From the NCBI GenBank assembly GCA_964407615.1, contig CAYOWH010000001.1:85171-149170 (forward strand): DNA of 64,000 nucleotides. The letters are read 5' to 3'. This document shows positions 12,635-64,000 of the stretch, in pieces. Numbering within the stretch: position 1 is the stretch's first letter; every line of letters begins with the position of its first letter. Made by a program: the position numbers and the translations under genes. The notes beneath the pieces were generated by a model. It was given only the letters and a program-made list of their open reading frames with translations. It was not told the DNA's origin and made no database searches. Source of the stretch: an uncultured Bacteriovoracaceae bacterium. Lineage in GTDB: Bacteria; Bdellovibrionota; UBA2428.

Positions 12635-13849
12635 TTGGCTGGTTTAAACTTAAATAAAGAAATTATCAATAGAGATTATTTTGAATATACTGGTAAAATG
12701 ACTTTTTCAGAAGTAAGTAATCATTTACGAGAATTAGGAGATAATACAGGGTTTATTTTAAACGACATATTATTTCCTATACCACCTATTTCTATTCAAA
12801 TTCAAAAAGATAATTTTAATTGGGGTTACAAAACACTAAGATCTAAGACTACAACGAAAATTGTATCTGGTAGAAGTAGTGTTGGTATTCAAATCAAATT
12901 ACTATTTAATAGAGAAATGATTTTAATGTTGCATCGTTTAATTATTCAAATAAGGAACAATCCTTTTGTATGGGTGAAAAATGATTACATTAAGAATTCT
13001 ATTTTAGAAATAGATCCTAATTTAGGTTTAGATCCATCCAATCCAACTAATCTTTTTTGTACTGTAGTTGGATTTAGAATAAGTTCTTATCAAGCCGGTG
13101 TATCTTCTTTTGAAGCAGAATTAGATTTAAAATATTTCAATTATTATCCTTATTCTCCAAATTTAATGTTTAGAAAAGAATTGGAATCTTTATTGATTCC
13201 AATTTCGGATATCAAATTCTCAAGTTTTGTGTTTCCTGTTTTTGATACTAGAAGACTTGCGCAAATAAACTACACTTTAACTAATCAAACTAACACTCAA
13301 GCTGCAACTACTGAAACAAATTCAACTTCTGATTCTACTAAAAAAGAATCAGAAACATACTTTACTTCGATGTATAGAAACTTAAAGAAATATAACTTTT
13401 CATTGAGTGTCAGAGAACCTTACTTTAGCAATGTATATGTTAGATACTATAATTACTTACAAATAAAATCTTTAACTGAGAACTTTGGAATAAATTGTGT
13501 TGATCGATCTATTTTTACAAAAGAAGAAATGTTACTTTTAGAATCAGGTTTAATAGGAGATAATTTTCAAAATTTAGTAATTGGAGTTCATTCAGCATAT
13601 TTACCAGAATACATTAAAATTAAATTAATTTTAAAGATGCTAGAAAAAGATTTAAATATGAAAATTTACTGGAATCAATATTTCTATTTAAACTTACCAG
13701 GAGAAGTATTAAAAAGATATCGACAAGAAATTTTGGATGGTACTGAAAAGATTAATGATGTTGAGCAAAGACAAAAGAAAATTCTTGAAAATCAAAAGAA
13801 AATAGCAGATGCTTTGATTAAAATTTCGAAAGAAGAAGGTGTAAAATGA
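12635..13849 (+). CDS. Hypothetical tail/baseplate-associated protein (404 aa), TTG start
   Basis: The ORF begins with TTG, 6 nt after a GGGAGA Shine-Dalgarno-like sequence. Its end overlaps the next start as ATGA. N-domain, T/S/N-rich linker (TNQTNTQAATTETNSTSDSTKK), then C-domain. It sits between the two megagenes. Confidence 0.6.
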   Translation: MAGLNLNKEIINRDYFEYTGKMTFSEVSNHLRELGDNTGFILNDILFPIPPISIQIQKDNFNWGYKTLRSKTTTKIVSGRSSVGIQIKLLFNREMILMLHRLIIQIRNNPFVWVKNDYIKNSILEIDPNLGLDPSNPTNLFCTVVGFRISSYQAGVSSFEAELDLKYFNYYPYSPNLMFRKELESLLIPISDIKFSSFVFPVFDTRRLAQINYTLTNQTNTQAATTETNSTSDSTKKESETYFTSMYRNLKKYNFSLSVREPYFSNVYVRYYNYLQIKSLTENFGINCVDRSIFTKEEMLLLESGLIGDNFQNLVIGVHSAYLPEYIKIKLILKMLEKDLNMKIYWNQYFYLNLPGEVLKRYRQEILDGTEKINDVEQRQKKILENQKKIADALIKISKEEGVK

Positions 13850-22800: not shown

Positions 22801-24279
22801 TTTGATACAGCCAAATCAGCAATGTATAAAAGCATACTTTTAAATGAATGGAATAGAGTCACTGAAAAAAGATTTACACCTTTTAGAAATTATCATTTAG
22901 TATCAAGTAAATTTAATTTAGTTGCTAATAATATCAAAGGTGTAAATAATGATGTAATTAATGAAATCGCTGTTTTGTTTGTTAATAATTCTAGTACTGA
23001 AAATCCTGAATATACACAAAGAATTATTAGATCACACGAGAATATACCTGAAGATCAAATTCATGCTAAAGCTGTAAAATATGACAATTGCAAAGGTTTT
23101 AACAGTGCTTTAAGATATGGTACATCTGAATTATTAAACGCAGCTAAAGAAATGTATGCTGGCGAAATTTTAATACTTGGGAATCCTGAAATAAATCCTT
23201 ATGATGTGATTCTTTTAGATGATCAATATTCTGAGATGTACGGTCCTATTGAAGTAGAAGCTGTTACTCATATTTTTAGTATGGATACTGGTTTTATTAC
23301 TGAAATCAAACCAAATGCTTTAGTAACTGCAAATGAAGGTTTAACTTATCCTATTATTAATAGTGTAATTATGTATGATGTTGGTAGAGAATTAGCAGAG
23401 AAATCTCCTTTTGATTTTGTGAATACTGTAAAAACATACAGAAAAAATCCTAATGATGAAAAAAGTAAAAACACAATTAAAACTAGATTAAATGAATTAG
23501 TTAATAAATGGTTTGATAAAGAAGTTGGTACTTTTGAATTATTTGGTCTTTTTCCAAATACTGTACAAATTGGTTTTTCAGATTATCTAAAGATGGATGA
23601 TAATCAACAAGCAAAAATTAAAGAATCAATTGTTGAAGATTTGTTAAAACAAGTTCAAACAAACAACATTGTTTTACAAGCAGAAATATTAAATCCAAAT
23701 GCATCTATCGATTCTTTAATCGATACAAGTGCTATCACTGGTCTCTTGAGTAGTGCTGCAGCTATTGCATTAGCTACTACTGTAAAATTTGGTACAACTA
23801 AACTTCCTATTGCTTTCTTTACTGCTTTAGCAGCAGCTAGTGGAAATTTTAATTCAGTTATTAATAACCAATTGAGAACACCTGACAGTCTTCTTGCAAA
23901 TAAATTAATCCCTGGAGACATGTTAGTATCTCAAGTAGCTGATGGAAATCTTATGCAAATATTTCCTTTGTACAAGAATAATAAACCTTTAATTTATGCA
24001 GGCTATGATAAGATAAATGCTAAACGCAGAATTAAAAATAAGTTTGGAAATATATTTACTGATTTCTCTGATGCAATGGAAACTTTCAACATAATGTTGA
24101 AAGAATATGCAAATAAAGAAAATATTATTTATTCTGAACCTAATTTTGTTGCTGAAACTGCAGGTATACTAAGTGATGCTGCACAAAGTCTTTTGCCTTT
24201 TAAATTACCTGAAGGTACTATTAGAGGGTATATAAATTCTTATACTCCAGATCAACTGATAAACAAATCATTAAAGTAG
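13846..24279 (+). CDS. Giant tail megaprotein (3477 aa): M15/LAS peptidase domain + TM segments + split baseplate-hub (gpD/XkdQ-like) domain
   Basis: Single 10.4-kb ORF, ATGA-coupled to the upstream gene. The domains listed as separate features below were recognised by motif. It is followed directly by XkdS-like and Baseplate-J-like genes, the position normally held by tape measure and hub. Confidence 0.6.
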   Translation: MNELGVKGLMTAKEWQKNQHLTDADFGVPTGIQEILYFFKSSVGEGEDKDKIVAKENTSFFLNQLSILEKKIRKTIIIAEYSFGCYPCNNGFYTLFGNKFVNNDARDLNGSNQYIERPFYIDSEKKILIDFLNPVFSSSSPDSAEYSLSSFSKKYSINSNEDYRKYLKNNFIFIIFYSYEFSSIESLTNSQLDFFAIDRMSNKFLKTGLSQYYYFKDSQLKHLFNKKDPNDDSQKLYFVYGTDNKSPMTQGFSIYISKIKGNPNFTERLATPPTRDIFDPASFFNKYNDLQKPNVTKEEAEERIKKFLFTYLGITAPSISAKLDGEYYDIENEIIIPPNQFANIMDKSLKADRYGTKGDPDAVDSLTKGIPGFFKNKSIPSPFVGITNIIIQEILTKEKVTGYQISKFTINEFDFSKTSDEVNQLIASNYQAFLKENYNVIAKSFYETFLKKMLEISPPEKKEIIEPVAIVPELATPEPPAPAPQPEPEPIVAAPPPPPPPPEPEIKPVVEEPKPVEPWPLKYLTKEDLSNFKEINSVLNGNETESPYQPWLNKDYISNIFTKTKVLPLTIEDGLDFKTKDNVLVSVSGGINSLTANIPILGQAYPTTQFLSSMEPNYQLNLIASNNMHANGLEDSASDLPNAIKRLEEINTTTLRTAREYKFVPDGSSILVDSFITRLFGSFKEEYVILENLDDANSYYVTLKKPINIESTEYRTLESNPGASAYSMRLSETNVYDPEVLKEVTTNKKLKNDQLYNEVVNYALMNCDSSSYMNRFVDTKENILVNNIETGDVFEWQTKYFKSWDFFGQYLNKKDELKKLLEEKQIARIVNLNLYDLASTYLDPLFEELAKDANLAKFFKGIKITSGFSTDEDDTRTTFSQHYFGSAVDIVVPNFNALHIVRILQKISNTVNRKIGIGVYGNDILKKNYYKGIETDVADLTWCTVMDGQKATTGFVHVDLRLNMLDQLEYDSKLETYANSNNTTVQNLKTFDKRKFSSLTQEEKDTYFALRKLKMESFKKDINNPNYEPEYQSSVFWSADTEGSYAVGYNDEKIDVFKTNIAPAEASHQFTIYDVYLGKASLSYLHLYNYFDQNYYNNNEIFINKSNDMNHMNQYYKSLFTSFRSSIINTETNTPLDSDDVNNIDDVDADIDTDIVKTTNSLEFSKETSLYDESLRQEKFFNQLDELFNRDTIDYVLGINYEQKKFSELEDPVKQKLMSSNVTNESPVYIYDIDNGSELISSEKYNDFYHKYRAANPQLSSTATEVLTAYFKENKIDAYVEEDDKSIFTDYKIYILDPLTTSTFTKRQTSNAAEEIKVKKLLTMICDFHLLAGILLIEPYVYLDDEKEIKKEIARFNSTFYGISVVPLYFNNLYYAITGLSLESYQNEGIQPYNQQELLGKKNQLTNFLSNDGINSKSYVSKFTKTKDDWTISRKLESTTAFIAVATLIGAVALSVISAPALILGMIFAGYTMYQGLESAEKDRTGLIFGRGSSHELYSSNWFNLALLKGVILDSSGVNGSLTNSERLGISILNQIYTQIEYDKDLNFNLQTLYSKMNNGEEIWDFTTDIVKQYLIENPIILKYSKLSKYFKESNQGLTFSLSNIIDQNFFENEEKKEKSGLINNGFTESSFAQDWLKYILGFPYQEGLPYFKENHTIQIDNVKKNQSKDSNNIQFEYFSGILDEVNEIFEETDALIPKISMEEKKEELNKNKSEFEEKIKSLEESKTEINLRIKKAKDDFSKDKTVTALDGLKRSTFEDNLKLLNEELNKNLEDSKPIIEKLKEINNNIKKLDTSLYLKDIFEQGKELYKNTNINILYPSGETTVSNLANVDWTSLYSFFSTIPLPDKPDARNDVLKNFKQKLTLTDNFISIFLGERKYVQRPNHVKEPGKYFFFSQSQNVIVEDFLQSFALYSNETKEKYVLDESKLQNNFYFEDEINKLYNKNEFFTANYQYNRSNKDLKYENLKDLFFNIPSGLKQGICTAYKEHNDKTLGFLKNLLEEIIKELLSSEFFKKNLNISENENVSDSFDFGKDKNNYPDIDLPIDPSEVNSNVNLNPGFFYYESDFNDKILTDVDNRANNILRKSLKFMNDLESGFVTGDGKNLQKGDPADNYVKDIIIDTQDSSSSSYLVKGGSGDSFKELMLNPNASVKINFQQDSMTTLTANDIAFIDIKNLVESSQSEVRLQTLTDKIKEIQDKTSSIDIAFGSRTGFLNEPLSLLNFYKTYNQKGDSLFFGNSDTEKAIAGKLGIFDDADLSNNKEDISMVMKQSGRKLFQKQFKMQKAYPTFRLFLIEEDAIESDTYFVFDDFYSFSAVKDFTVYKSKKLAADTAIIRLQNVSGVLDGTKLGVIRDVDYEMATNRIKEVEAEKKAEEKNTQVIESLVLRPGVACQLRAGYSSNPKELTILLSGKIADVSWSSSGDMCEVVVQSFGVELEVRKYGSSDVDSGVSELEFHTTHKLLGWCMFRNELKHFGRFKKERLFQTGISNSESKEVVISKESYIGTPPGYSDSMFQFFQSNWGWFVVADVLLSVATVFIGGARGLAKEAVSEATEAVAKTAAKEAGEEVVEAVAKEAAEATVTEATKAAAKTTAKATFISKTAQYLASAMNISDNLLTGTKWYSKGLLAPFRWAFGSGWNPGANTVIVNNVLRRIAKDTAGLSDDALEAVVKATLLENVKGGRGPLLTTLGKIFGLNVAVAGSNLKRLLTVSPKAVLSGIQKATKEGVLDQKVANALVKEMSTSFNVLYAGRSALESFSLGFVKASKFSILALGIGASIDIVSNIVSASTGYLSDLISNTLNPYSEKIALSPQDDAIYAPHPDRYIKPKNETIGVRFADIMKKTGIAFLNAMSMYQAEANAEKLQKDIILGRTLAMDKRMYSSSGENIFKLKNHTIWEVFHEMSLRHPGWVYGARHYGTGLEYRMFFGLPNQRYFGAPLNNRTIYRMNDIIRAISNNDLASMRKLVGETANTIDNYLKDTEGLKANFDTAKSAMYKSILLNEWNRVTEKRFTPFRNYHLVSSKFNLVANNIKGVNNDVINEIAVLFVNNSSTENPEYTQRIIRSHENIPEDQIHAKAVKYDNCKGFNSALRYGTSELLNAAKEMYAGEILILGNPEINPYDVILLDDQYSEMYGPIEVEAVTHIFSMDTGFITEIKPNALVTANEGLTYPIINSVIMYDVGRELAEKSPFDFVNTVKTYRKNPNDEKSKNTIKTRLNELVNKWFDKEVGTFELFGLFPNTVQIGFSDYLKMDDNQQAKIKESIVEDLLKQVQTNNIVLQAEILNPNASIDSLIDTSAITGLLSSAAAIALATTVKFGTTKLPIAFFTALAAASGNFNSVINNQLRTPDSLLANKLIPGDMLVSQVADGNLMQIFPLYKNNKPLIYAGYDKINAKRRIKNKFGNIFTDFSDAMETFNIMLKEYANKENIIYSEPNFVAETAGILSDAAQSLLPFKLPEGTIRGYINSYTPDQLINKSLK
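15259..15399 (+). other. Proline-rich linker (PELATPEPPAPAPQPEPEPIVAAPPPPPPPPEPEIKPVVEEPKPVEP)
   Basis: A locally GC-rich run of CCN/GAA codons inside the 3477-aa ORF, separating an N-terminal ~470-aa region from the rest. Confidence 0.8.
16210..16745 (+). other. Peptidase M15 / LAS-family zinc D,D- or L,D-peptidase domain (virion-associated cell-wall hydrolase)
   Basis: KITSGFSTD...TFSQHYFGSAVDIVV...IGIGVYGN...GFVHVDLR gives the S-x-H-x-x-G-x-A-x-D and H-x-D zinc-ligand motifs. By my count these are H882, D889, H957 and D959. Confidence 0.65.
20698..21175 (+). other. Baseplate hub / late-control-D (gpD, XkdQ)-like domain, N-terminal part
   Basis: KAYPTFRLFLIEEDA...AADTAIIRLQNVSG...VLRPGVACQLRAGYSSNPKELTILLSGKIADVSWSSSGDMCEVVVQSFGVELE matches the usual pattern l.pG..v.l.aGY.....l..lf.G.I..v. 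Confidence 0.5.
21406..21630 (+). other. Transmembrane helix followed by an Ala/Glu/Lys/Thr periodic low-complexity helix, inserted within the hub domain
   Basis: WGWFVVADVLLSVATVFIGGARGL, then AKEAVSEATEAVAKTAAKEAGEEVVEAVAKEAAEATVTEATKAAAKTTAKA. Repetitive GCT/GAA/AAA codons. Confidence 0.7.
23158..23325 (+). other. Baseplate hub (gpD/XkdQ-like) domain, C-terminal part
   Basis: AGEILILGNPEINPYDVILLDDQYSEMYGPIEVEAVTHIFSMDTGFITEIKP matches the typical hub C-terminus G.i.l.G.p.i.p.d.v.l....sg.~G.y.v..v.H.....Gy.T.i. Confidence 0.5.
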
Positions 24280-25595: not shown

Positions 25596-26837
25596 ATGCG
25601 AATACAAAATGTTGATGTTGCTAGATACTCTTCTAGTTTGAGAACAAGAATAATGGAGTCTCTAGGTGCGGAAAGTAGTTATACTAGTGATTCTCTAATA
25701 AATATTATATCAGAAGTTTTTAGTCAAGAATCTGCAAATTATGTAAATCAATTAAATACAGTTTTAGATTCAATGTCTGTTTTAAATGCTAAAGGTAGCT
25801 CACTTGATACACTTGCTTATTCCATGTATGGTTTAAGTAGATATCCTGCTAGAAAAGCAAATGTAAAGGCTAGCGATTATAATATTTATTTTACAGTGGC
25901 TAGAGGAAAAACTAGTTTTGGTGATATAAATGATGGAGCTTCTATCACTATTCCTGCGGGTACTATTTTATCTACAAACGGAAGTATAAATTCAACTGGA
26001 AGCATTAGATACGTTGTTTCTAGTAATGTAGTTTTAAGTTCGAATTCTAATGTAGGTTATGTATCTGCTATAGCAGTTGGTGCTGGTAAAAGCTTTAATT
26101 TAAACAAAGGTTTAAATTATCATGATTTTACAAATTATTATGATTTTGAAAATAACACGCTTTTAGTTTCAAATACTTACCCTATTTTAAATGGTTCTGA
26201 TGCAGAAACAGATGAGAATTTTAGATTTAGAATAATGAATCATTTAAATTCATTAAAATTTACAAATTATAATAATGTTTTATTTAGTAGTTTAAATATA
26301 CCAGGGATTATTAATGTCAAAATAATAAACTCTTATTTTGGAGTAGGTACTGCAGCTGTAGTTTGTTTTGGACAAGCAAAGCAATCGAATACTGAATTAG
26401 TTAAAAAAGTTCAAAATATATTAGATGCGAAAGATTCAAATAATTTTCGTTTTATAGCAATTGAACCTAGAAGACTAAATCTCGATATAAAAATTACATT
26501 AAATCTTTCTAGAATAGATTCTACTGATGAAATTAAAAATAGAATTGAAAATGCAGCTCAAGAAAATGTTCTTAACTTTTTTAATCAGAGAATTGGAGAA
26601 AACAATTATTTGCTTTCTGAATTTCACAATTCTTTGATTGATACTATTAATCGATTTTTAGTTAAACCAATATTACCTTCTAAAGATTATATACCCGTTA
26701 TCAACGCCTCAAAAGTATCTAACAACGATATTATAGAGCAATACTCTTTAATAAGAATAAGTGATGATATCTTTTTACAAGATGATGAAATGGTAGATGT
26801 CGCTAAAATAACTTTTGATTTTAAGTTAAAGGATTAA
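25596..26837 (+). CDS. Baseplate J-like protein (XkdT / gp6 / P2 gpJ family)
   Basis: 413 aa. N-terminal LINIISEVFSQESANYVNQLNTVLDSMSVLNAKGSSLDTLAYSMYGLSRYPARKANV fits the Baseplate_J signature (A.G..LD.LA...G..R..A..A). Synteny after the gp25-like gene supports the call. Confidence 0.6.
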   Translation: MRIQNVDVARYSSSLRTRIMESLGAESSYTSDSLINIISEVFSQESANYVNQLNTVLDSMSVLNAKGSSLDTLAYSMYGLSRYPARKANVKASDYNIYFTVARGKTSFGDINDGASITIPAGTILSTNGSINSTGSIRYVVSSNVVLSSNSNVGYVSAIAVGAGKSFNLNKGLNYHDFTNYYDFENNTLLVSNTYPILNGSDAETDENFRFRIMNHLNSLKFTNYNNVLFSSLNIPGIINVKIINSYFGVGTAAVVCFGQAKQSNTELVKKVQNILDAKDSNNFRFIAIEPRRLNLDIKITLNLSRIDSTDEIKNRIENAAQENVLNFFNQRIGENNYLLSEFHNSLIDTINRFLVKPILPSKDYIPVINASKVSNNDIIEQYSLIRISDDIFLQDDEMVDVAKITFDFKLKD

Positions 26838-48150: not shown

Positions 48151-48375
48151 ATGATAGATCCCCAGAATAAATATGATGCTGTTGTTTTAAATAGAATAAG
48201 CAATTTAGAAGAAAGAGTTAAAGATTTGATGATTGCTCATCAAAGGTTTGTATCTCTTACCCAAGTACAAGAAATCTATTCTGTATTAGTTACAGAAATT
48301 GAAAAGTTAAAAACAACTGTCTCGTCACTTGAGAAAAGAGTTTCAATACTAGAAGACCTTCCACCTATCGACTAG
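48151..48375 (+). CDS. Small coiled-coil protein (74 aa)
   Basis: AAGGA RBS before the ATG. Its N-terminus (DPQNKYDAVVLNRISNLEERV) echoes that of the preceding ORF (DNQKYTDPTQVLLDYRVGQLENKI). It is the last plus-strand gene. Confidence 0.6.
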   Translation: MIDPQNKYDAVVLNRISNLEERVKDLMIAHQRFVSLTQVQEIYSVLVTEIEKLKTTVSSLEKRVSILEDLPPID

Positions 48376-48964
48376 CTTTCATCATATTGTCTATGATATG
48401 TGCATCATTTTTAGTTATTAATTTATAAGTTTCTAACTTTGGAATCTCTACCATAACTGGTAGAATTCCTGTTTGATTAAAAATTAACTTAGAGAATTCA
48501 GTCTCGTCTCTATCTGTGTCTTTTAAAAGACATTCAAGTAACAAGTCTTTATGGAATAATTGCAATGGTTCAATGATACATTTTTGCGGATTTGAATTGT
48601 ATGCCTTTGATTGATTATCAAAAACAGTCTCGTCTAACCACGTAATTGCGGAAACAGAATCATAGTTTATTTTTTCAATTATTTTACCAATACTATTTAA
48701 AGAAAGTAATGGCATATTAATATCGACTACTAAAACTTTATCTGTTTTTACTTGCTTTAAAGCAAGTATTAGAGATTCTTTTCTAGTAGAAGCTGAATCA
48801 ATATCTAATCCAACTATAATGATATTCTTTGTAAATTCACTAAATCTATCATAAAGAATAGACCATAATGCTTTACCTCTAAATTGATAAAATACTTTTG
48901 GGATTCCAAGTCTTTTACCTTTACCACCACCCATAATAATTACTGTTAAGTTATTTTCTGTCAT
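48365..48964 (-). CDS. IspD/TarI-family sugar- or polyol-phosphate cytidylyltransferase-like protein (199 aa)
   Basis: N-terminal IIMGGGKGKRLGIPKVFYQFRGKALW fits the motif GxGxRxxxxxPKxF..l.Gk. STRKESLILALKQVKTDKVLVVDINMPLL fits R..S...AL....VLVhD.aRP. PLQLF and YKLITKNDAHI correspond to tPQ.F and NiKiT.peD in IspD. Confidence 0.65.
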   Translation of the reverse strand: MTENNLTVIIMGGGKGKRLGIPKVFYQFRGKALWSILYDRFSEFTKNIIIVGLDIDSASTRKESLILALKQVKTDKVLVVDINMPLLSLNSIGKIIEKINYDSVSAITWLDETVFDNQSKAYNSNPQKCIIEPLQLFHKDLLLECLLKDTDRDETEFSKLIFNQTGILPVMVEIPKLETYKLITKNDAHIIDNMMKASR

Positions 48965-50608: not shown

Positions 50609-50957
50609 TGTTTTTTTGTTGTTCTATATACGCTTTAAATAACTGAATCCAATCGTCAAGAAGCATAGTTACCAATGCTTCTTCTCTATCATCTTTTGTA
50701 ATTGCTGCAGGAAGTTTATTCTTTAATGCACAATCATCAATTGCTTGCCTCATTGCTGCTTTTATATTGCATTTAATTTGACGCTTAGCTTCTACATGAA
50801 TGTATTCTACTTCAACATCTGCAATTTCTTTACCACCAACTCTAGCTTGACCTAAACCTCTTTTAGCTTCAAGTCCTGTTTTCTCAGCAATATATTTTGC
50901 AAGTTCTCTTTCAAAACTTGCACCTTTAATTCTTGCGCCTCTTCCTCTGGTTGTCAT
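50598..50957 (-). CDS. Holliday-junction resolvase, Hjc/PD-(D/E)XK type (119 aa)
   Basis: RIKGASFERELAKYIAEKTGLEAKRGLGQ...IADVEVEYIHVEAKRQ matches the pattern kG..fEre....l...G..a.R...sg...D.......iEvK. Confidence 0.55.
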   Translation of the reverse strand: MTTRGRGARIKGASFERELAKYIAEKTGLEAKRGLGQARVGGKEIADVEVEYIHVEAKRQIKCNIKAAMRQAIDDCALKNKLPAAITKDDREEALVTMLLDDWIQLFKAYIEQQKNNAN

Positions 50958-51628
50958 TTTGCTTTATCCTTGATCTTGAACTTATATTTTTTAGGTTCAG
51001 GAATGTCTATTAAATCTATAAAGTTAAATTTCAAAGCTTGTTCAGCTGTAAAATAAAAACTAGTTTTACCTTGGAAATTTTGTTTCCAATCTTTTTCTTT
51101 TATCTTTGTTCGTTTCTTTAATATTCGATCCATTTGTAATTGATTTAAATTATATAAGTCTTGCATTGATTGAATTTGTTCTGTTGAAAGAACTTCAATG
51201 TAACTCATAACTACTTGATGATAAAAGAATAAACTGTTTTCACTAGCTATTCTATAATCTCCAGCAGCTAAAATAATCAAACCACCAGATGCACAAATAC
51301 CTGTTGCATAAATAATAACAGGAGATTGAATATTTCTTATACAATCATAGATTGCTAATGAAGCTGCAACTTCTCCACCATCAGTATTTAAAATTAAAGT
51401 AATTTGATCATGACTAATTTTATCTAATTCCATCAATTGACTAATTAAAGTTGTTGCTGAATCTTTATCAATTTCGTCTTTAAAACAAATAGTTCTACTT
51501 TCCACACCAAAGAATTTAATATCTGATGGATTCCAATAATGTTTAAATTTATCGTCACTTTCATTAGCTTCTAATGCAGCAATCAATTCTAGTAATTCTT
51601 TTTTATCCATTTGCATCTCCTGATTCAT
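50954..51628 (-). CDS. clpP: ClpP-family (S14) serine protease
   Basis: ITLILNTDGGEVAASLAIYDCIRNIQSPVIIYATGICASGGLIILAAGDYRIASENSLFFYHQV aligns with the ClpP core. Candidate triad residues are present: Ser in GICASGG, His in FYHQV, Asp in FNFIDLI. The likely true start is ATG 51610, with GGAG 6 nt upstream. Confidence 0.7.
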   Translation of the reverse strand: MNQEMQMDKKELLELIAALEANESDDKFKHYWNPSDIKFFGVESRTICFKDEIDKDSATTLISQLMELDKISHDQITLILNTDGGEVAASLAIYDCIRNIQSPVIIYATGICASGGLIILAAGDYRIASENSLFFYHQVVMSYIEVLSTEQIQSMQDLYNLNQLQMDRILKKRTKIKEKDWKQNFQGKTSFYFTAEQALKFNFIDLIDIPEPKKYKFKIKDKAK

Positions 51629-56080: not shown

Positions 56081-57145
56081 CTAGCTTAAATTGACATTAG
56101 ATTCTTGCCAACCATTTGTTGTGATTTTTCTAAATTCTACATTCTTTGGATTAATATCAGATAGGTCTTGTAAACCAAGATAACTAATTGCTGATTGAAT
56201 TCCATCATTAAACTTTTCTAGTAATTCTTTATAAGTATATTTTGGATTAAAGTATTGAGAGCTTTCACCTTCAACATTTTTTGCGGTACCATATTGAGCT
56301 AATTGAAAATCTTTACTAGCTTGACCTCTATATCTTTTTACCTTATCTCTTGATTTTAATTTGATAGCAGTAAACAAATCAGGTAAATCCCAACCAGCAG
56401 ATTCTTCTGTATAAGATAGTAGTTTGCCTAGCATTATATGTGTTGCACCTGCAGCAAAGTATTTAACTGCATCACCACTAGAAGTAATACCACCATCAGC
56501 AATGATCATGATTTCATCTAATAGGCTAGCTTTATTCACTGCATTATAAATATCAAAAACAGCAGATAGTTGAGGTACACCAACTCCTGTTACTAATCTT
56601 GTAGTGCAAGCAGCGCCAGGACCAATACCTACTCTTAAGTAATTGCAACCAGCGTCAATACATCTAAGTGCAGCAGATGATGTTGCAATACTTCCAGACA
56701 TAATATCTTTTACATATGAAAGTTTTCTCCATTTAGAATAAATTTCATGCATGTATTCTGTATCTCCATGAGCTACATCTACACAGATATTAATTTTTTC
56801 ATTAGGATCAATATGTGCTCGCAATTCTTCTAGAAATTTCTTTTCATATTCAAAATCTGAACTTACAGCCCACCAAAAGTTATTTTTATAGCTAGAAAAT
56901 CCAAAGAAAGCTTTTACTCTTTCTGATTCATCTATAAACCTACTTAACACTGGTAGTTGATTATTATCGATTAGCTCTCTAGTCAAGTTATAACCTGTAA
57001 CAGTATCCATTGGTGCGGAGAACATATAAGGTAAAAGAGATGCTTCTGATCTTGATTTTAAAATTCCACAATCAGGAACAAGCAATACATCTTTTACTGA
57101 AAGATTTAATTCTTTAAAAGTTTGTAAGTTTCTTTCGAAAATCAT
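56081..57145 (-). CDS. guaC: GMP reductase-like enzyme (IMPDH/GuaC family, no CBS insert), 354 aa
   Basis: VKDVLLVPDCGILKSRSEASL...FSAPMDTVTG; ICVDVAHGDTEY; catalytic-loop RVGIGPGAACTTRLVTGVGVPQLSAV; IIADGGITSSGDAVKYFAAGATHIMLG. Collinear with E. coli GuaC (about 347 aa). Confidence 0.75.
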   Translation of the reverse strand: MIFERNLQTFKELNLSVKDVLLVPDCGILKSRSEASLLPYMFSAPMDTVTGYNLTRELIDNNQLPVLSRFIDESERVKAFFGFSSYKNNFWWAVSSDFEYEKKFLEELRAHIDPNEKINICVDVAHGDTEYMHEIYSKWRKLSYVKDIMSGSIATSSAALRCIDAGCNYLRVGIGPGAACTTRLVTGVGVPQLSAVFDIYNAVNKASLLDEIMIIADGGITSSGDAVKYFAAGATHIMLGKLLSYTEESAGWDLPDLFTAIKLKSRDKVKRYRGQASKDFQLAQYGTAKNVEGESSQYFNPKYTYKELLEKFNDGIQSAISYLGLQDLSDINPKNVEFRKITTNGWQESNVNLS

Positions 57146-58686: not shown

Positions 58687-59790
58687 TTAGAGAGCACCTT
58701 TCTTAACTGGTAAATGTGTACCTAGGTACACTGGAGTGGAATAGTTAAAGTCTGTGTTGCCATTAGAGTCATGGTAAATAATAGCATAACCATTAACAGC
58801 GTTTTTAAATTTAAGATCTGCTTTGAATTGATAAGGTAATCTATGAGCCATAGCACCTTGTTCAATCAAAAGTTTGTTACCTACAATCCCTTTATATTGT
58901 TTATGTGTATGTCCAACAACAATAGAGTCAAATTCATCATTCTTTAGTCTTGCAGAAAAATGATCTAAGAGTTTGACTACTGTTGCTCCAGGATAAGAAT
59001 TGGAGAAACCATCTGGATGACAGAAAATAGTTTTCCCTATTCTTACATACCAAGAATCAAATCTTTCATAAACAACATTTGAGAAATCATGTTTCTTTAC
59101 AAGATTTCCAAATTTATCTAGCTCTTCTCCTGAAGCAATTCTTGCTAAAAGATCAGGTCTAAAAACTTGAGAAGCTTCTTGTTCAAAACCATTAGATGCT
59201 AAAGCTCTAGAGGTTCTAGCATCATGATTTCCAGAAACAATTACTACCTTAGTAAAATTGCATGATAAGAAATATACAAGATCAAAAGCAGCCATATATT
59301 CTTTAATAGCAGCTACTCTTTTAGATTTTGCATATGTACTAAAAATATATCCATCAAGGATATCACCATTAAGAACGACAATATCTGCGTCTGAATGAAC
59401 TTGACAGGCTCTTTTAATTTCTTCATGCATAAAGAATGGTATATGTAAATCACTAAATGTCAAGATCTTTCTTGTTTGATGATCTGTAATACCTATCTTT
59501 ATTTGCTCTGATTCTAAAGCATATTCTTCAATACATTCGGCTATATGATCCCAACGTTCTTGAAAGGGATCATCTTTAGGTTGTACAAGTACAGGATATT
59601 CAGAGATTCTTCCTCTATAAATTCTATTTCTTACTGCATCAGGACTTCTAATTGAAATAAACCCTGGAACTTTTTTAGAATAGTATTCATTAATAATTTG
59701 TGAAATTTCTAAAGGATTTTTTATATGTTGATATTTAAAAAGGATTTGATCCTCTTGTGGAGTCCATAGATAAGTCTTCTTGTCTGTCAT
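58687..59790 (-). CDS. Myb/SANT-like HTH fused to calcineurin-like metallophosphoesterase (367 aa from ATG 59790)
   Basis: N-terminal YLWTPQEDQILFKY...IRSPDAVRNRIYR fits the pattern W..eED..L...R....R. MPE motifs: FSDLHIP (DxH), LNGDILDG (GDxxD), VSGNHDAR (GNHD) and VVGHTHKQ (GHxH). The track ORF starts at TTG 59826. Confidence 0.65.
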   Translation of the reverse strand: MTDKKTYLWTPQEDQILFKYQHIKNPLEISQIINEYYSKKVPGFISIRSPDAVRNRIYRGRISEYPVLVQPKDDPFQERWDHIAECIEEYALESEQIKIGITDHQTRKILTFSDLHIPFFMHEEIKRACQVHSDADIVVLNGDILDGYIFSTYAKSKRVAAIKEYMAAFDLVYFLSCNFTKVVIVSGNHDARTSRALASNGFEQEASQVFRPDLLARIASGEELDKFGNLVKKHDFSNVVYERFDSWYVRIGKTIFCHPDGFSNSYPGATVVKLLDHFSARLKNDEFDSIVVGHTHKQYKGIVGNKLLIEQGAMAHRLPYQFKADLKFKNAVNGYAIIYHDSNGNTDFNYSTPVYLGTHLPVKKGAL

Positions 59791-61033
59791 CTTTATTCCA
59801 TTGGTGTTTGTAAAACTTATTTGCAATAAGTTTTATATCTGGTTCAGTTGATTCTACTTTAACTTCAGCGATTATAATATCACCTTCTTGAATTTGTAAA
59901 GCAGCATATTCTTCATATTTATGTGGAAAGACTACAAGTTCTGCAGCACGAGTTGAATCATCAATATCTAGAATTGCCATTTTCTTGCCAGCTTTAGTAT
60001 TGATGATTCTTTGTGAAAGAATTACTCCTGCTACTTTATATTTAAAATTCTCTTCTACAGATTCTAAATCTTCTCTATCTATGTTCGTCATATTGATTGG
60101 ATGTCCACCAATATAACAACCAATATAAGATGCTTGATCTAGGATTTCCTTTAGATTTATTGGTACGGTTTTAACTCTATTAAAAGTTGGTAAATCTGGT
60201 AATTCTTTTTCTTTTAAATCTACAGCTTTTTTTAATTCCATTTCTTCTAATGGAAGTAAATCTTCTTCTAATTGTGTAATTTTATTTTGAAGTTGAATAT
60301 CATCTGGAGATTTAGTCAACTTTTTCTTTGCTTTTATTAACTCATTTCTTAAGAAATTTCTTTTTTCAATTAAAGGTAGAATCTCTTCATTCCTTTTATT
60401 TCTCTCTATAATATCTAATTTTCTTTGATTAAATTCTTCTACATCTTTTAAGTAAGAATAAATAGAATCTACATTTTCTAATAATTCTGAGCGTACATAA
60501 CCTAATTTATCAAATGCACCTGCTTTAACTAAACCTTGAAAAACTTTAGTATTAACCTTTTGAGTATTTACTCTATTGATAAAATCCCAAACATCTTTGA
60601 ATGGTGTATTCCCGCGTGCAGTAATAATATATTTTGCTGCAGTACCACCAACATCTCTAATAGCGTTTAATCCAAAATAAATTTCATTATCATGGATAGT
60701 AAACTCAAAACTACTGCGATTAATATCAGGTGGGAATATATCAACCCCAAAATGTTTTGCTTCATTAATATACTCTGGAGCCTTAATAGCCCAAGTTTTT
60801 GGTTGTAAAGTTTTAGATCTAGTGCTCATTAATGCAGTAAAGAATTCTACTGGATAATTAGCTTTTAAATAAGCAGTTACATATGTAAGTACAGAATAAG
60901 AAACTGAATGTGCTTTGTTAAAACAATTTGAAACGACTACACCATTTTCTAATTGAAAATCATGATGTGGCGAATCAACACTAATATCATATACAGGTTG
61001 TTGACCTATAAAAGTTTTTGATTTTATTTGCAT
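59735..61033 (-). CDS. dnaE: DNA polymerase III alpha (DnaE) C-terminal half preceded by a split-intein C fragment (432 aa)
   Basis: After residue 36 the sequence [34 protein letters not shown] is the conserved Pol III alpha fingers segment. It is followed by PPDINRS, the HhH motif [17 protein letters not shown] and an OB fold ([37 protein letters not shown]). No PHP or palm region is present. Confidence 0.85.
   Translation of the reverse strand: [432 protein letters not shown]
60926..61033 (-). mobile_element. Split intein C-terminal fragment (IntC, 36 aa: [36 protein letters not shown]), followed by the +1 Cys
   Basis: Intein block F (VYDISV..HHDF) and block G (NGVVVSN), with the terminal Asn and a Cys+1 extein residue. 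It is nearly collinear with cyanobacterial DnaE IntC ([42 protein letters not shown]). Confidence 0.8.
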
Positions 61034-61036
61034 AAT

Positions 61037-61528
61037 TTATTTATATAAAATTGTAATTGTTGAATTTGGAATATAACTTGTTGCACTATTGTATGGTATA
61101 TTGATAGGAAGTGTTCCAGATACATTAACAAGTCCCAATTTGACTGATCTAATGGATGCTGATGAAAAAAGCATCAAGAAACAATCGACTGATGCAAACC
61201 AAACGCCTGAAGTACTTCCAGCCCGCATGATACAAAGTCCATAGGCTTGATGGTCTACTAAAGCATTTGAGGCATCCAGAAATGATGGTTGGGGTGCATT
61301 ATTTGTAGATCCTGTATTTACTGCTTGCACAATCAAATTTGATTTAACAAAAAATTCCATATTTGCTGGGAAATTGATGAAGTTGTTCGTGATACTAATT
61401 TGACCCCCAGTATCTACTAAAATGTTCCCAAGATTTATAGCGGTTGTATTAGATGCGATATTTAATGTCTCAAGGATTTCAATCTCACAAATGTGACAAT
61501 CAATGTATGGGATAGGCTGAAAACTCAT
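61037..61528 (-). CDS. Small beta-rich knob-like protein (163 aa from ATG 61528)
   Basis: The track start is TTG 61543. ATG 61528 forms an ATGA overlap with the upstream stop. S/T/N/A/G/V-rich with few charges. Its stop lies 3 nt before the dnaE-C ATG. Confidence 0.55.
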   Translation of the reverse strand: MSFQPIPYIDCHICEIEILETLNIASNTTAINLGNILVDTGGQISITNNFINFPANMEFFVKSNLIVQAVNTGSTNNAPQPSFLDASNALVDHQAYGLCIMRAGSTSGVWFASVDCFLMLFSSASIRSVKLGLVNVSGTLPINIPYNSATSYIPNSTITILYK

Positions 61529-61944
61529 GATATTGCTCCACAAGAAATGACAAAAACATTTAGATTATCAGCGGTCACAACATCCCCCGTATCAAGGATT
61601 GATGAAGTTATTTGTGTCGGCTTATCTTGATATGTAAGAGCAACAATAGGTTGCATAGTGGAGGATGATTTATGAGCAAGAGATGCACCAATTCGAGTGT
61701 TTGAACTATGACCTGAAGGGGATAAACCAATACGAGCAAGCACATAGTTTGTATCACTATCGTTTGTTGCTCTAGCCATGATTTGAATCACAGATTGACT
61801 AGCAATATGTGTTTGACTAGCATTATGAAAGCATGGCATATTAATACTTCGTTGAAATGGATTACTAACAATTGCACCTAGAGTACAAGAACTTGTACTA
61901 TTATCTAGAAAATAGACGGTTTGAGGTGTTGGCAAATATGACAT
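61525..61944 (-). CDS. Small beta-rich protein (139 aa)
   Basis: The start shares 1 nt with the upstream stop (TAATG). Same composition class as its neighbours. N-terminus MSYLPTP resembles MSYMIKH and MSFQPIP of the adjacent ORFs. Confidence 0.55.
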   Translation of the reverse strand: MSYLPTPQTVYFLDNSTSSCTLGAIVSNPFQRSINMPCFHNASQTHIASQSVIQIMARATNDSDTNYVLARIGLSPSGHSSNTRIGASLAHKSSSTMQPIVALTYQDKPTQITSSILDTGDVVTADNLNVFVISCGAIS

Positions 61945-62429
61945 TATGCAATCTCCAAAATAAAGGCACGAGAGGCACCACTATTGACGGTATCAACATA
62001 GAGAGCGCCCGTATCTCTTGAGTAGAGAAAAGAAATATAATCCCCCGCTGATGCTGATACGACTGCTGTTGCTACATTGATCGGTGTAATCCAAGCACCA
62101 CTACCAACCGCCCCGCTTGTTGTAACGGCTTGAACGGTTGGTTGTGCTGAGACGGTCACACCATTCTTTTGGATAAAAACTTGTGCACCTCTATTTTCGG
62201 TACCATTTGAAATACCTACCTTATAATAGATGATGTATGTTTTCCCAGCAACTAAGGTGATTTGATTATTAGCAAGTGTTAATCCCATATCATTGCTTTG
62301 AACAAGAGTATCTAGTGAAAGTGTTAGATTTCGGGGTACACCTGTTGAAATCGTGTAATTGGTAGTGAAAAAAGCGGTTGCCATCTTAAAAGGTTTTGCA
62401 TTTATAGAATGTTTAATCATGTAACTCAT
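61944..62429 (-). CDS. C1q/TNF-like (BclA C-terminal-domain-like) jelly-roll protein (161 aa)
   Basis: TAFFTTNYTISTGVPRNLTLSLDTLVQSNDMGLTLANNQITLVAGKTYIIYYKVGIS...QVFIQKNGVTVSAQ...ISFLYS...SRAFILEIA follows the BclA-CTD/C1q pattern (..aG.Y.I.y.v.....v.l..NG..v....a.l.I..ia). Confidence 0.45.
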   Translation of the reverse strand: MSYMIKHSINAKPFKMATAFFTTNYTISTGVPRNLTLSLDTLVQSNDMGLTLANNQITLVAGKTYIIYYKVGISNGTENRGAQVFIQKNGVTVSAQPTVQAVTTSGAVGSGAWITPINVATAVVSASAGDYISFLYSRDTGALYVDTVNSGASRAFILEIA

Positions 62430-62440
62430 AATAAAAAATC

Positions 62441-62923
62441 CTAACAGATAATCCAGTTAGCATCATTAGAACGAACTGTTAAATTTCCCCATTGTGTAGG
62501 AATAGAGATGCTTGATAACCCGCTAATCGTTTGAGCGGATACCGTCGCAACAGTTACGGCCCCCGTATTAACCCTAGTAATATGATATGTTAAGCCATTG
62601 TTTCCTACGGCGGTTGGTAGTGTAAAGGTTAAAGCGCTTGTACTGTCCATTGTATAATGTTCTTCATATACAGAAGATGCGACGGGATCAGGGATCGCAA
62701 AGTTACTAGTCTTATTTGTGATTGTAATTCTGGCACCACCACCACTTGAAATAGTACTTGGTTTCCATAACGAAGTTGAACTTTCCCAAACAAGAGCTTG
62801 TCCATTTGTAGGTGCAATACTTGAAGTATTTACATCTAAAAGTGCATCAATTGATGTTGCATTGATTCTAGTAGTAATTGTAGAATTCAAATCACCAATT
62901 TGTTTAGATTTTATTTGTGCCAT
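62441..62923 (-). CDS. Small fibre-tip-like protein (160 aa)
   Basis: N-terminal IDALLDVNTSSIAPTNGQALVWESSTSLWKPS is a fibre-shaft-type motif (L.DV....p..GQ.L.W....W.p). C-terminal ALTFTLPTAVGNNGLTYHITRVNTGAVTVAT...WGNLTVRSNDANWII is typical of receptor-binding tips. AGGA RBS. Confidence 0.45.
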   Translation of the reverse strand: MAQIKSKQIGDLNSTITTRINATSIDALLDVNTSSIAPTNGQALVWESSTSLWKPSTISSGGGARITITNKTSNFAIPDPVASSVYEEHYTMDSTSALTFTLPTAVGNNGLTYHITRVNTGAVTVATVSAQTISGLSSISIPTQWGNLTVRSNDANWIIC

Positions 62924-63304
62924 TTAAACAATCCTATAATAAATGATAGCTCTAGAAGTTAAACTTGTTAAATTAGTATAACTTCTTGTTAAGGAACTAG
63001 TTGTAGTAATTAAACCAATATCTAATATACCTCTAATGAACTTACCATCTGCTTTTACATAAGTATTATATGTATCATAAAAAGTTCTAGATGAATTATT
63101 ATTATAAGTTGTAGTTATAATATTTGAAGCCGCAGTATTATCTAAATAAGTATTAATATTTTGTTGCAAATATTTATAGATGCTACTGGATGCTGTTTCG
63201 TAATTATTTGATATTGTAATATCTGAAGGATTATTTGTAGTTTGAGTATAATCAGAATTAATACTTACTGGAGAAAGATAAGAAGATACATTAATCCAAG
63301 TCAT
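62924..63304 (-). CDS. Small N/T/S/Y-rich protein (126 aa)
   Basis: TAAATG junctions on both sides. The MTWINVSS N-terminus resembles MTFINLQS of the next ORF. Confidence 0.5.
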   Translation of the reverse strand: MTWINVSSYLSPVSINSDYTQTTNNPSDITISNNYETASSSIYKYLQQNINTYLDNTAASNIITTTYNNNSSRTFYDTYNTYVKADGKFIRGILDIGLITTTSSLTRSYTNLTSLTSRAIIYYRIV

Positions 63305-63712
63305 TTAAATACCTCCTAATTGCCAAACAATTACAAAACAAGAATTGCCTACATTTGCTGTTACAGTATTTCCTGTAATGATCGCAAGAGAAGAATTTGA
63401 TGCTCCTTGCAAATCAAAAGTTGCACAAGCATAACCTTCATCAACATTAATACTTTTAGTAATAGAAGCAGTTCCACAAGTAATATTAGTTATATTCATA
63501 AATGGATCATAATAATATATTTCTACAAAATAACTAAAACCCGGAGGTAAACTTATTATATTGCTTAGAGGAATTGATCCATTTGTAACTGTTGTAGCAT
63601 TAGTAATATTTAAATGCTTTCTTTGAAAAAGTATTGTACTAGTTTGCATAATAAAAGTAGCATATTTGGGAACTATAGTTAGAGAACCACTTTGTAAGTT
63701 AATAAATGTCAT
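63305..63712 (-). CDS. Small beta-rich knob-like protein (135 aa)
   Basis: GSIPLSNIISLPPGFSYFVEIYYYD...EGYACATFDLQGASNSSLAIITG...CFVIVWQLGGI shows a C1q/TNF-like strand pattern. Chained junctions to its neighbours. Confidence 0.45.
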   Translation of the reverse strand: MTFINLQSGSLTIVPKYATFIMQTSTILFQRKHLNITNATTVTNGSIPLSNIISLPPGFSYFVEIYYYDPFMNITNITCGTASITKSINVDEGYACATFDLQGASNSSLAIITGNTVTANVGNSCFVIVWQLGGI

Positions 63713-63713
63713 T

Positions 63714-64000
63714 TTACACCTTTTTGATTCTTTTTACAGTCATAGACACACTATTAATAGTGTGCACAGGATATGTTGCAGTATTAGAAGTCAAAGCTAT
63801 TCTTGATACAAAAGAAAAATTAGCTCCAATTGGAGTTACCAATGCTCCTCCTGTAGAGCTTCCCCCAAGAAAAAATATGCACTTTGTTTTTTCTGGATTA
63901 CTTAAATCTAAAGTATAATCTTTTATTCCTTGCTGAGAATAATAATCAAAACCAATAACAGGATCACTTGAATTAACTGTTGATTGATATTGATATGCAG
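63714..64000 (-). CDS. 3' part of a further small beta-rich ORF running off the window end (not in the ORF track)
   Basis: My translation of the minus strand from 63998: AYQYQSTVNSSDPVIGFDYYSQQGIKDYTLDLSNPEKTKCIFFLGGSSTGGALVTPIGANFSFVSRIALTSNTATYPVHTINSVSMTVKRIKKV, then TAA (63716-63714), 1 nt before the next ATG. Same strand and spacing style as the rest of the array. Confidence 0.5.
   Translation of the reverse strand, partial: AYQYQSTVNSSDPVIGFDYYSQQGIKDYTLDLSNPEKTKCIFFLGGSSTGGALVTPIGANFSFVSRIALTSNTATYPVHTINSVSMTVKRIKKV

Follow-up and report, generated by a model that had tools for sequence, protein, structure and literature searches.

Tandem cassettes of one short tail fibre and three small proteins, probable exchangeable receptor-binding tips, between the split-intein halves of dnaE in a freshwater phage

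The globular head of complement C1q is a heterotrimeric knob (gC1q) formed by A, B and C chains that are encoded by three tandem genes, and the gp38 adhesin of phages T2 and S16 docks on the tip of the gp37 long tail fibre, sets host range and recombines as a module. Here we describe a locus that partly resembles both in a 64,000-nucleotide stretch of contig CAYOWH010000001.1 (the window), in which a chain of small open reading frames (ORFs) runs along the minus strand from 64000 down to 61037, where it reaches the gene for the C-terminal half of a split DnaE (dnaE-C). Among aquatic viruses, the ‘metaviromic islands’ of marine pelagiphages carry putative receptor-binding genes with a C1q domain (Mizuno et al. 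2014; PMC3909814), gp24 of phage Pam3 has a TNF-like receptor-binding domain (PMC9608196), and three consecutive genes for the tripartite tail proteins of virophage DSLV2 are described as giving a 1:1:1 heterotrimeric receptor-binding protein (PMC12724248). The chain in the window consists of two tandem four-gene cassettes, each made up of a short tail fibre gene followed by exactly three genes for small proteins. These are probably hypervariable host-recognition genes for exchangeable receptor-binding tips, lodged between the split-intein halves of dnaE, and most likely belong to the host-recognition island of an uncultivated tailed freshwater phage of about 158 kb and about 30% GC.

As in the C1q head, three tandem genes here would encode TNF/C1q-type jelly rolls, and by analogy C1q may serve as a precedent for a pseudo-threefold knob with three binding faces; its chains, however, are evident paralogues, each with a collagen stalk in cis, whereas the trio in the window has no detectable paralogy (that of one relative, L048, does). 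As with gp38, small proteins are separately encoded directly downstream of a fibre gene, on which they may dock, but gp38 is one protein with a fold of glycine-rich motifs (PMC9608196), whereas here there are three, with TNF-like jelly rolls predicted. The pelagiphage islands likewise place small C1q-like proteins beside tail-fibre genes, hypervariable between near-identical aquatic phages and with host recognition inferred; there, however, only one protein is involved, which has a conserved N-terminal portion and a C1q domain that can be detected by sequence (PMC3909814), whereas the present locus has three knob-sized genes per short fibre, two to three tandem units, no C1q sequence signature and a position inside a split dnaE. 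Foldseek relates the predicted fold to the short-fibre CBD of cyanophage A-1(L) (8ke9), cyanophage A4 (9k09), the phi812 knob (9eul), Pam3 gp24 and Bdellovibrio Bd2734 (8okw), whose distal receptor-binding role is their own; in each of these a long fibre or spike chain carries the knob as its C-terminal domain, in contrast to the free-standing products of 126-225 amino acids (aa) found here. DSLV2, also a freshwater virus, has three consecutive, similar-sized and position-conserved genes for which one receptor-binding complex is proposed, but the fold there is a needle like the T4 gp37 tip, the description includes neither a separate short fibre gene nor tandem cassettes (PMC12724248), and the likeness drawn here is one of layout. 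Finally, the split polymerase resembles cyanobacterial split-intein DnaE and the ‘fractured genes’ of PMC2677866 in having Npu-type IntN and IntC homologues with junctions ..Y/CLS.. and ..SN/CFNK, but its halves are neither distant nor separated by a single homing-endonuclease gene: 8-10 kb of fibre and lysis genes lie between them, and the initial codons of IntC serve in addition as a boundary box for the cassettes. A preliminary reading made from the letters of the window (the sequence-only reading) had stated that no described system has this layout, which was too strong, given the C1q-like genes beside fibres (PMC3909814) and the three-gene heterotrimeric receptor-binding protein of a virophage (PMC12724248). 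Thus, TNF/C1q-like knobs as phage receptor binders and hypervariable C1q-like genes beside the fibres of aquatic phages were already known (PMC3909814, PMC9608196), while the free-standing three-gene set behind a minimal fibre, its tandem repetition, start boxes common to the IntC start, and a host-range and lysis locus fixed inside a trans-spliced dnaE are new.

The chain comprises six complete ORFs of 135, 126, 160, 161, 139 and 163 aa together with one frame that runs off the window. We name each by its length (W135, W126 and so on) and compare it with 58 related metagenome loci of freshwater and marine origin (labelled L001, L004, L005 etc.), on contigs of up to 150-160 kb from IMG/VR, ENA/Logan and JGI/NCBI metagenomes. 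Read from the partial ORF onwards, the genes are joined by a 3-nt spacer, two TAAATG junctions (0 nt), an 11-nt spacer, a TAATG junction (1-nt overlap) and an ATGA junction (4-nt overlap), and the last stop, that of W163, falls 3 nt short of the dnaE-C ATG (59735-61033, minus strand), so that the chain first described from the sequence agrees with ours in coordinates and junctions. For W163 the gene-calling tool gave a TTG-extended product of 168 aa (61037-61543); all relatives keep the 163-aa version (MSFQP...) that starts at the ATG at 61528. The unusual composition noted earlier was likewise confirmed: S, T, N, A, G and V make up 48-57% of the array proteins and charged residues 7-12%, as against 29-39% and 23-28% in neighbouring genes. 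The ratio of non-synonymous to synonymous substitution rates (dN/dS) against orthologues is 0.11-0.36, which identifies the array ORFs as real coding genes.

The sequence-only reading described these ORFs as an array of at least seven knob-like genes; they are not seven equivalent units and divide into two cassettes, all on the minus strand. Cassette C begins with W160 (62441-62923), the short tail fibre, and continues with W161 (MSYMIKH..., 61944-62429), W139 (MSYLP..., 61525-61944) and W163 (MSFQP..., 61037-61528) as trio positions 1, 2 and 3. Cassette B begins with a fibre gene past the end of the window, followed at trio position 1 by a MTWIN... protein of about 225 aa whose C-terminal 94 codons lie at 63716-64000 (85% identical to the 225-aa product of L004 6654-7331), at position 2 by the beta-rich W135 (MTFIN..., 63305-63712) and at position 3 by W126 (MTWIN..., 62924-63304). 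In relatives it is a fibre gene of 175-262 aa (M[TA]QIK[AS]KQI..) that precedes the 225-aa MTWIN-type gene. W135 orthologues are 73-92% identical in L002, L004, L005, L006 and L012 and about 30% identical in L001 and L014, and W126 is 85-98% identical among close relatives.

Throughout the clade, each such fibre gene is followed by exactly three small genes. This 1+3 rule holds for about eight cassette types of distinct sequence, found in the window, L001 and L014 (three cassettes each), L003, L005, L044 and L048, with trio lengths that vary widely: 161/139/163 aa in cassette C of the window, 137/135/316 in that of L005, 128/125/168 in that of L001 and 194/173/178 in that of L014; 148/157/163 in cassette A of L001; 225/135/126 in the cassette B type; 173/160/159 in L048; and 211/201/120 in L044. 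A variant in L003 (3227-6358) has a fibre-start gene (155 aa, ..MPKIKTKQIADLN..) followed by genes of 72, 689 and 117 aa, again 1+3 but with a large middle protein. The two N-terminal groups reported earlier, MS[YF] and MT[WF]IN, are genuine and are tied to position within the cassette: position 1 usually starts MS[YF][LM][IA]K, positions 2 and 3 often start M[ST][YFH][IL]P, and in cassette B the start is MT[WFY][ILV]N. A unit measures about 2 kb, and translation of its three small proteins is probably coupled. The tight or overlapping junctions would fit equimolar co-expression of the cassette proteins.

The small proteins are also free-standing, as first described. Members of the W161, W139 and W163 families measure 161-175, 130-139 and 159-163 aa (all sizes within 125-175 aa), the sole exception being one fragment of 107 aa; no member of these three families carries a longer domain, and none has a collagen, coiled-coil or beta-helical stalk in cis. 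These families are tiny, with 13-15 clusters among 5.8 billion proteins (13 for W161), and a deep hidden Markov model search for the W139 family yielded six representatives in 1.84 billion proteins, all free-standing and of 130-139 aa. Distant members of this last family hold the middle place of a fibre-plus-trio cassette in other phages.

W160 is, by homology, a tail fibre. It consists of a conserved N-terminal anchor (MAQIKSKQIGD...), a fibre motif (LLDVNTSSIAPTNGQALVWESSTSLWKP), a GGG linker and a C-terminal domain of about 95 aa ending in NWIIC. The same plan is seen across its family, in which a near-invariant N-terminus (M-x-[KQ]-I-K-[SAT]-K-Q-I-x-D) is followed by optional repeat insertions, by a motif also seen in the tail fibres of cyanophages and Melnitz phages (S-I-[DN]-A-L-x-D-V...P-T-x-G-Q-x-L-x-W...W-x-P), and by a Gly linker and a C-terminal domain of about 95 aa that finishes W-x-I-x. 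W160 matches phrog_9627 (E 5e-8), phrog_677 and other tail families, and tblastn relates it to cyanophage and Melnitz tail fibres. Its residues 17-159 are 65% identical to the final 144 aa of an 833-aa fibre in L075, itself a match to tail and structural PHROGs, and a 683-aa fibre in L048 has a C-terminus that matches residues 59-159 with 48% identity. By the L075 match, W160 joins an anchor of 16 residues to the terminal 144 residues of a long fibre. The sequence-only reading was therefore right in giving the 160-aa protein a fibre origin, but this protein is a short fibre and not a knob. Sequence and profile searches of the PDB with W160, W139 and W135 gave no match, and a scan of IMG/VR with the fibre profile returned only four contigs, all already known.

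Monomer models were generated for W161 and W163 using AlphaFold 2 (AF2), from alignments of 13 and 15 sequences, respectively. Both models are all-beta, with a mean predicted local distance difference test score (pLDDT) of 81.1 and a predicted template-modelling score (pTM) of 0.78 for W161, and 83.7 and 0.80 for W163. In Foldseek searches of the PDB, the W161 model matched the phi812 central-spike knob, BclA, F-BclA, 4-1BBL, RANKL, the A-1(L) short-fibre CBD and C1q domains (E 3e-5 to 1e-3, TMq 0.45-0.62), and the W163 model matched TL1A, EDA-A1, TNF-alpha, the C-terminus of Bdellovibrio Bd2734 (a fibre tip), F-BclA and ExsFA/BxpB (TMq 0.46-0.61); the cyanophage A4 tail was also among the matches of these models. 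Against BFVD, W161 found the C-termini of tail-fibre and collagen-repeat proteins as well as free-standing phage proteins of 135-170 aa (E down to 2e-7). With a Foldseek probability of 1.0, E values of 2e-7 to 1e-3 and TMq of about 0.45-0.68, the models predict ten-strand jelly rolls of about 130-160 residues, so that W161 and W163 are putative knobs of the TNF/C1q/BclA-C type.

The idea that the array ORFs are jelly-roll knobs thus gains from the models of W161 and, in addition, W163, and fails for the fibre W160; the C1q/BclA strand pattern proposed for the 161-aa and 135-aa proteins is likewise upheld for W161, while for W135 the sole basis of the call is a motif, LPPGFSYFVE, which resembles the C1q G-x-Y-x-F strand. 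Of sequence features of this superfamily, only a loose G-x-Y-x-[FIL] strand motif was seen, in W161, W163 and W135. The all-versus-all sequence comparison suggested earlier, made by BLAST and by HH profiles and including enriched alignments, detected no paralogy among the small ORFs of the window. Since W161 and W163 themselves have a common predicted fold without profile similarity (hhalign probability 3-8%), these negative results are silent on the folds of the other small ORFs. The members of the L048 trio are still recognisable as paralogues (probability 96.5% and 65%). When the six complete ORFs were scanned against Pfam and PHROG, the fibre matches of W160 were the only significant ones.

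Comparison with close relatives revealed strong turnover of copies and sequences, in keeping with the exchangeable receptor-binding tips that the earlier note had listed among the possible roles. Amino acid identity between the window and L004 is 94-98% for the flanks, W160 and W126 but 64-69% for W161, W139 and W163, with a dN of 0.24-0.30 for the trio against 0.014-0.05 for the flanks and a trio dN/dS of 0.16-0.22. The dS of the trio is also raised (1.3-1.7), which points to allelic replacement rather than mutation in situ, and the closest relatives differ from gene to gene, so that recombination takes place inside the cassette as well. The comparison with L005 shows replacement of a whole block: nucleotide identity is 98.2% from 61010 down to 52001 (9 kb) and 77.7% over cassette B, but there is no nucleotide similarity across 61011-62820, where L005 has an unrelated fibre body and its 137/135/316-aa trio. 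The cassettes thus behave as a hypervariable island, replaced or diverged between near-identical genomes. As regards other sources of variation, diversification by a diversity-generating retroelement was rejected: the only long direct repeat in 59000-64000 is the 24-nt start box, and the neighbouring genes scanned contain no reverse-transcriptase domain.

The module is also found on other phage backbones, where distant members of the W139 and W163 families keep their order. In L075 and L076 a fibre of 833 or 837 aa is followed by proteins of 163, 132 and 162 aa, and in L068 and L069 a fibre of more than 426 aa is followed by proteins of 161, 131 and 153 aa; in each pair a Peptidase_M15 gene comes next, and in all four the cassette stands at the end of the structural genes, ahead of the endolysin. 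Compared with L075, the fibre C-terminus is 65% identical and W161, W139 and W163 are 52%, 36% and 42% identical. Judged by these identities, the unit that moves is ‘fibre C-terminus + trio’. A trace of such movement may be preserved in L001 and L013, in which a 47-aa ORF at 9800-9943 (MEIMQVTKNFKLSELEFSD.../MEIMQVTKNFKLSELEFSDPIL...), a 5' remnant of a Peptidase_M15 gene, is wedged between cassette C and dnaE-C. It matches the M15 gene after the trio in L075, a full M15 gene follows the cassette in L068, L075 and L076, and the remnant looks like the footprint of an import.

A conserved box marks the boundaries of the cassettes. Each fibre gene start in L001, L004 and L014 carries 36-60 conserved nt, comprising the ribosome-binding site and the first 8-15 or so codons, so that each genome has 3-4 direct repeats, spaced about 2.0-2.9 kb apart in L001 and L014 and by 3475 and 2237 nt in L004. 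In the window, a repeat search found the box at the start of W160 (62898-62926, minus strand; TAAATGGCACAAATAAAATCTAAACAAAT), with equivalents in relatives, and a further copy at the start of IntC and dnaE-C (61016-61039, minus strand; TAAATTATGCAAATAAAATCAAAA), at the right-hand boundary of the exchangeable segment. The two copies are 79% identical over 24 nt (61016-61039 and 62903-62926, spacing 1887), and in L014 the IntC box, 2131 nt from the fibre box of cassette C, matches it at 89% over 36 nt. The 15-mer CAAATAAAATCWAAA occurs exactly only at the W160 and IntC starts in the window; allowing one mismatch there are three matches against 0.47 expected, a number that none of 100 shuffles reached. 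The W160 box also has a 51-nt match to the cassette B fibre starts of L005 and L012. Both breakpoints of the replacement between window and L005 fall just inside start boxes, identity rising to 98% from 61010 downwards. Where IntC starts MQIKSK... in the window, it starts MKIISK/MKIINK... in L010 and L005, which share 97-98% dnaE-C protein identity with the window, and the first codons of some IntC genes appear to have been converted during recombination of the boxes. These patterns suggest that homologous recombination in the start boxes adds, deletes and swaps cassettes.

The gene that bounds the fibre locus downstream begins with IntC, the C-terminal half of a split DnaE intein (MQIKSKTFIGQQPVYDISVDSPHHDFQLENGVVVSN; 36 residues, 60926-61033, minus strand), followed by the +1 Cys of CFNKAHS and the DnaE-C extein of DNA polymerase III alpha (59735-60925, minus strand), which has helix-hairpin-helix and OB domains (Pfam HHH_6 and OB fold; PHROG DNA polymerase). 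When joined to the IntN of L004, the window IntC matches Npu and other cyanobacterial DnaE split inteins (7qil, 4kl5, 2keq; E 4e-12). This IntN (..FADY/CLSGDTKIK..) closes the 535-aa DnaE-N of L004 (370-1977), and an IntN also ends DnaE-N in L005. The two halves of dnaE lie 8-10 kb apart on the same strand, a layout kept across the freshwater and marine phage lineage: dnaE-C begins with IntC in all 58 loci, at 53-98% identity, and the interval from IntN to IntC holds tail-fibre genes wherever the upstream flank is available. Three forms of interval were seen: two giant fibres of 1000-1400 aa (L016, L028, L031, L052, L053); a long fibre and then small genes (L044, L048); and, in the freshwater clade of the window, a 140-aa gene, a fibre of about 520 aa with tail-fibre PHROG matches, a holin-like gene, a Cys-rich 47-aa ORF, a gene of about 200 aa, a Peptidase_M15 gene (92-98% conserved) and the cassettes. 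Extension past the window by way of these relatives, a check proposed earlier, therefore shows that the array goes on through the rest of cassette B, the lysis cassette and a 523-aa fibre, with dnaE-N and its IntN about 8-10 kb upstream. The presence of fibre genes in the gap across the lineage implies a regular host-interaction (tail-fibre/lysis) locus, and not recent cargo.

Taken together, the gene structure, the modelled folds of W161 and W163, the homology of W160 to fibres, the co-inheritance of fibre C-terminus and trio, the block replacement and the accelerated divergence lead us to infer a virion location, docking, stoichiometry and receptor binding for these proteins. The conserved N-terminal peptide of the fibre would plug into a conserved baseplate socket, and its C-terminal domain of about 95 aa would form a relatively conserved platform on which the three trio proteins dock by their short position-specific N-terminal peptides, docking being suggested by co-inheritance only. 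The three fast-evolving proteins would then make up the distal, receptor-contacting tip, as one A-B-C heterotrimer or as three homotrimers, and two or three cassettes per genome would provide several alternative specificities on the virion. Host range may shift by block replacement of ‘fibre body + trio’, with crossovers in the start box at fibre starts and with the box overlapping the first IntC codons as the end point of the exchanged segment. A more specific version is tentative and, to us, rather less likely true than false: that the cassette is a minimal receptor-binding organelle, a truncated trimeric fibre whose platform carries a single pseudo-threefold, heterotrimeric TNF/C1q-like knob made by the three downstream gene products, a possible phage analogue of the C1q A/B/C head, with three faces exchangeable by recombination and the first codons of IntC co-opted as terminal box.

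Several observations weigh against receptor-binding tips. A fold could be assigned for only two of the six small proteins (W161 and W163), from shallow alignments (13-15 sequences) and with moderate Foldseek TM-scores (about 0.5-0.65); W139, W135, W126 and the 225-aa protein have no profile link to either; and a Pfam scan of the six complete ORFs found no C1q, TNF or BclA_C signature even at E<=1. In addition, the array has the same strand as the replication genes and is 13 kb away from the main block of structural genes, and a scan for promoters and terminators, at or below chance, gave none recognisable that would separate it from dnaE-C.

The last of these points would suit early, non-structural factors, for superinfection exclusion, host-surface masking or anti-defence, transcribed with the replication genes whose strand and tight packing they have in common, no terminator or promoter having been detected between them; anti-defence genes are also typically hypervariable. 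Yet the genes alternate with genuine fibre genes and with endolysin and holin-like genes, the fibre-plus-trio cassette of other phages comes after the structural genes, the predicted folds are of an extracellular adhesin type, and inspection of the sequences found no signal peptide or transmembrane segment for placement at the host surface, so we regard such a role as quite improbable. A location on the virion that is independent of the adjacent fibre, as decoration proteins of the capsid or tail surface analogous to BclA- or Hoc-like adhesins, we hold to be improbable. The proteins are free-standing, the TNF/C1q fold is also that of surface decorations (as in the BclA and ExsFA/BxpB matches), and the 523-aa fibre of L004 also matches a ‘head decoration’ PHROG, but a physical unit is the better reading of the strict 1+3 rule, of the transfer together with the fibre C-terminal domain between unrelated backbones and of the position-specific N-terminal peptides.

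Co-inheritance with the fibre C-terminal domain is equally what a chaperone would show, and the trio could be fibre-specific assembly chaperones, or a mixture of chaperones and adhesins, which would serve to fold or trimerise the C-terminal domain of the fibre and would not remain in the finished virion, the true receptor binder then being that domain. The position directly downstream of the fibre gene is that of Tfa/gp38-type chaperones, W139 has no fold assignment, and the Pam3 chaperone gp25 contains a beta-sandwich domain (PMC9608196). Nevertheless, the W161 and W163 models match receptor-binding knobs and not known chaperone folds, being all-beta and lacking a helical domain; no tail-assembly chaperone was matched in Pfam or PHROG; three chaperones for a domain of about 95 aa would be unprecedented; and the trio diverges faster than the fibre C-terminus, as expected of the outward, receptor-contacting part. 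We thus consider chaperones unlikely. Least credible of all, and rejected here, is the earlier suggestion that the array is cargo of a mobile element, an intein or homing endonuclease, that split dnaE. The array does lie between IntN and IntC, split-intein halves do flank the interruption as in a ‘fractured gene’, defined by a split intein with a free-standing homing endonuclease (Dassa 2009), intervening ORFs being known in such genes (PMC2677866), and a LAGLIDADG-type ORF is present near dnaE-N in L012, but Pfam and PHROG detect no endonuclease domain in any window ORF, and the interval holds fibres, knob trios, a holin-like gene and an M15 peptidase in place of a homing-endonuclease gene. 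Moreover, a gap filled with fibre genes in all lineage members, marine and freshwater, down to 53% dnaE-C identity indicates an ancient, fixed arrangement, and cassette content turns over independently of the intein. Exchangeable receptor-binding tips therefore remain the favoured explanation.

Other features of the locus and its surroundings were recorded. The Cys-rich ORF between the holin-like and ~200-aa genes (45-50 aa; MCEKHSCEENECACLSGLFESC...; L004 4725-4868) is conserved and is also present in L001, L003, L005, L012, L014, L015 and L016. The LAGLIDADG-type ORF of L012 (128-658; LGFIYTDGSI ... LRGLIDGDGSI) lies in or beside the dnaE-N region, not between the intein halves, and suggests that some genomes have a further intein or homing endonuclease in dnaE-N. 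The sole terminator-like hairpin in 56-64 kb (61979-61965, minus strand) falls within the 3' end of W161, one being found against 2.8 expected. On the plus strand of the window, two giant ORFs at 2967-12632 (3221 aa) and 13846-24279 (3477 aa) have no Pfam domain, and the large ORFs near them have no PHROG match except for a gp6-like baseplate wedge (25596-26837) and a weak endolysin-like match (12635-13849). The minus-strand replication module includes genes for an IMPDH/GMP-reductase-like protein (56081-57145), a ClpP-like protease (50954-51628) and a MobA-like nucleotidyltransferase (48365-48964); IMPDH is among the genes ‘fractured’ by split inteins in Global Ocean Sampling (GOS) data (PMC2677866), and the IMPDH/GMP-reductase-like gene of the window is intact. 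A tRNA search found none. No cultured relative was identified, blastn against phage GenBank returning nothing and tblastn identities not exceeding 37%, and a host and prophage scan of genome contigs gave one irrelevant match, to Agromyces.

The bacteria that a phage can kill are set by its receptor-binding proteins, which in the abundant uncultivated phages of aquatic habitats are mostly unrecognisable by sequence. By the compact rule described here, host-range modules can be spotted in metagenomes as a conserved fibre gene start with three small TNF-like genes behind the fibre gene, and the locus documents replacement of a whole module between genomes that are 98% identical, with start boxes that suggest a route of exchange. 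It is also an unusual layout for late host-interaction genes to be fixed inside a replicative polymerase gene whose two halves are joined by trans-splicing, and this raises the question of how expression of dnaE-N and dnaE-C is coordinated. If the trio does form a heterotrimeric knob, it would represent a new phage adhesin architecture and, with parts of about 160 aa on a fibre of 160 aa, a minimal scaffold for host-range engineering.

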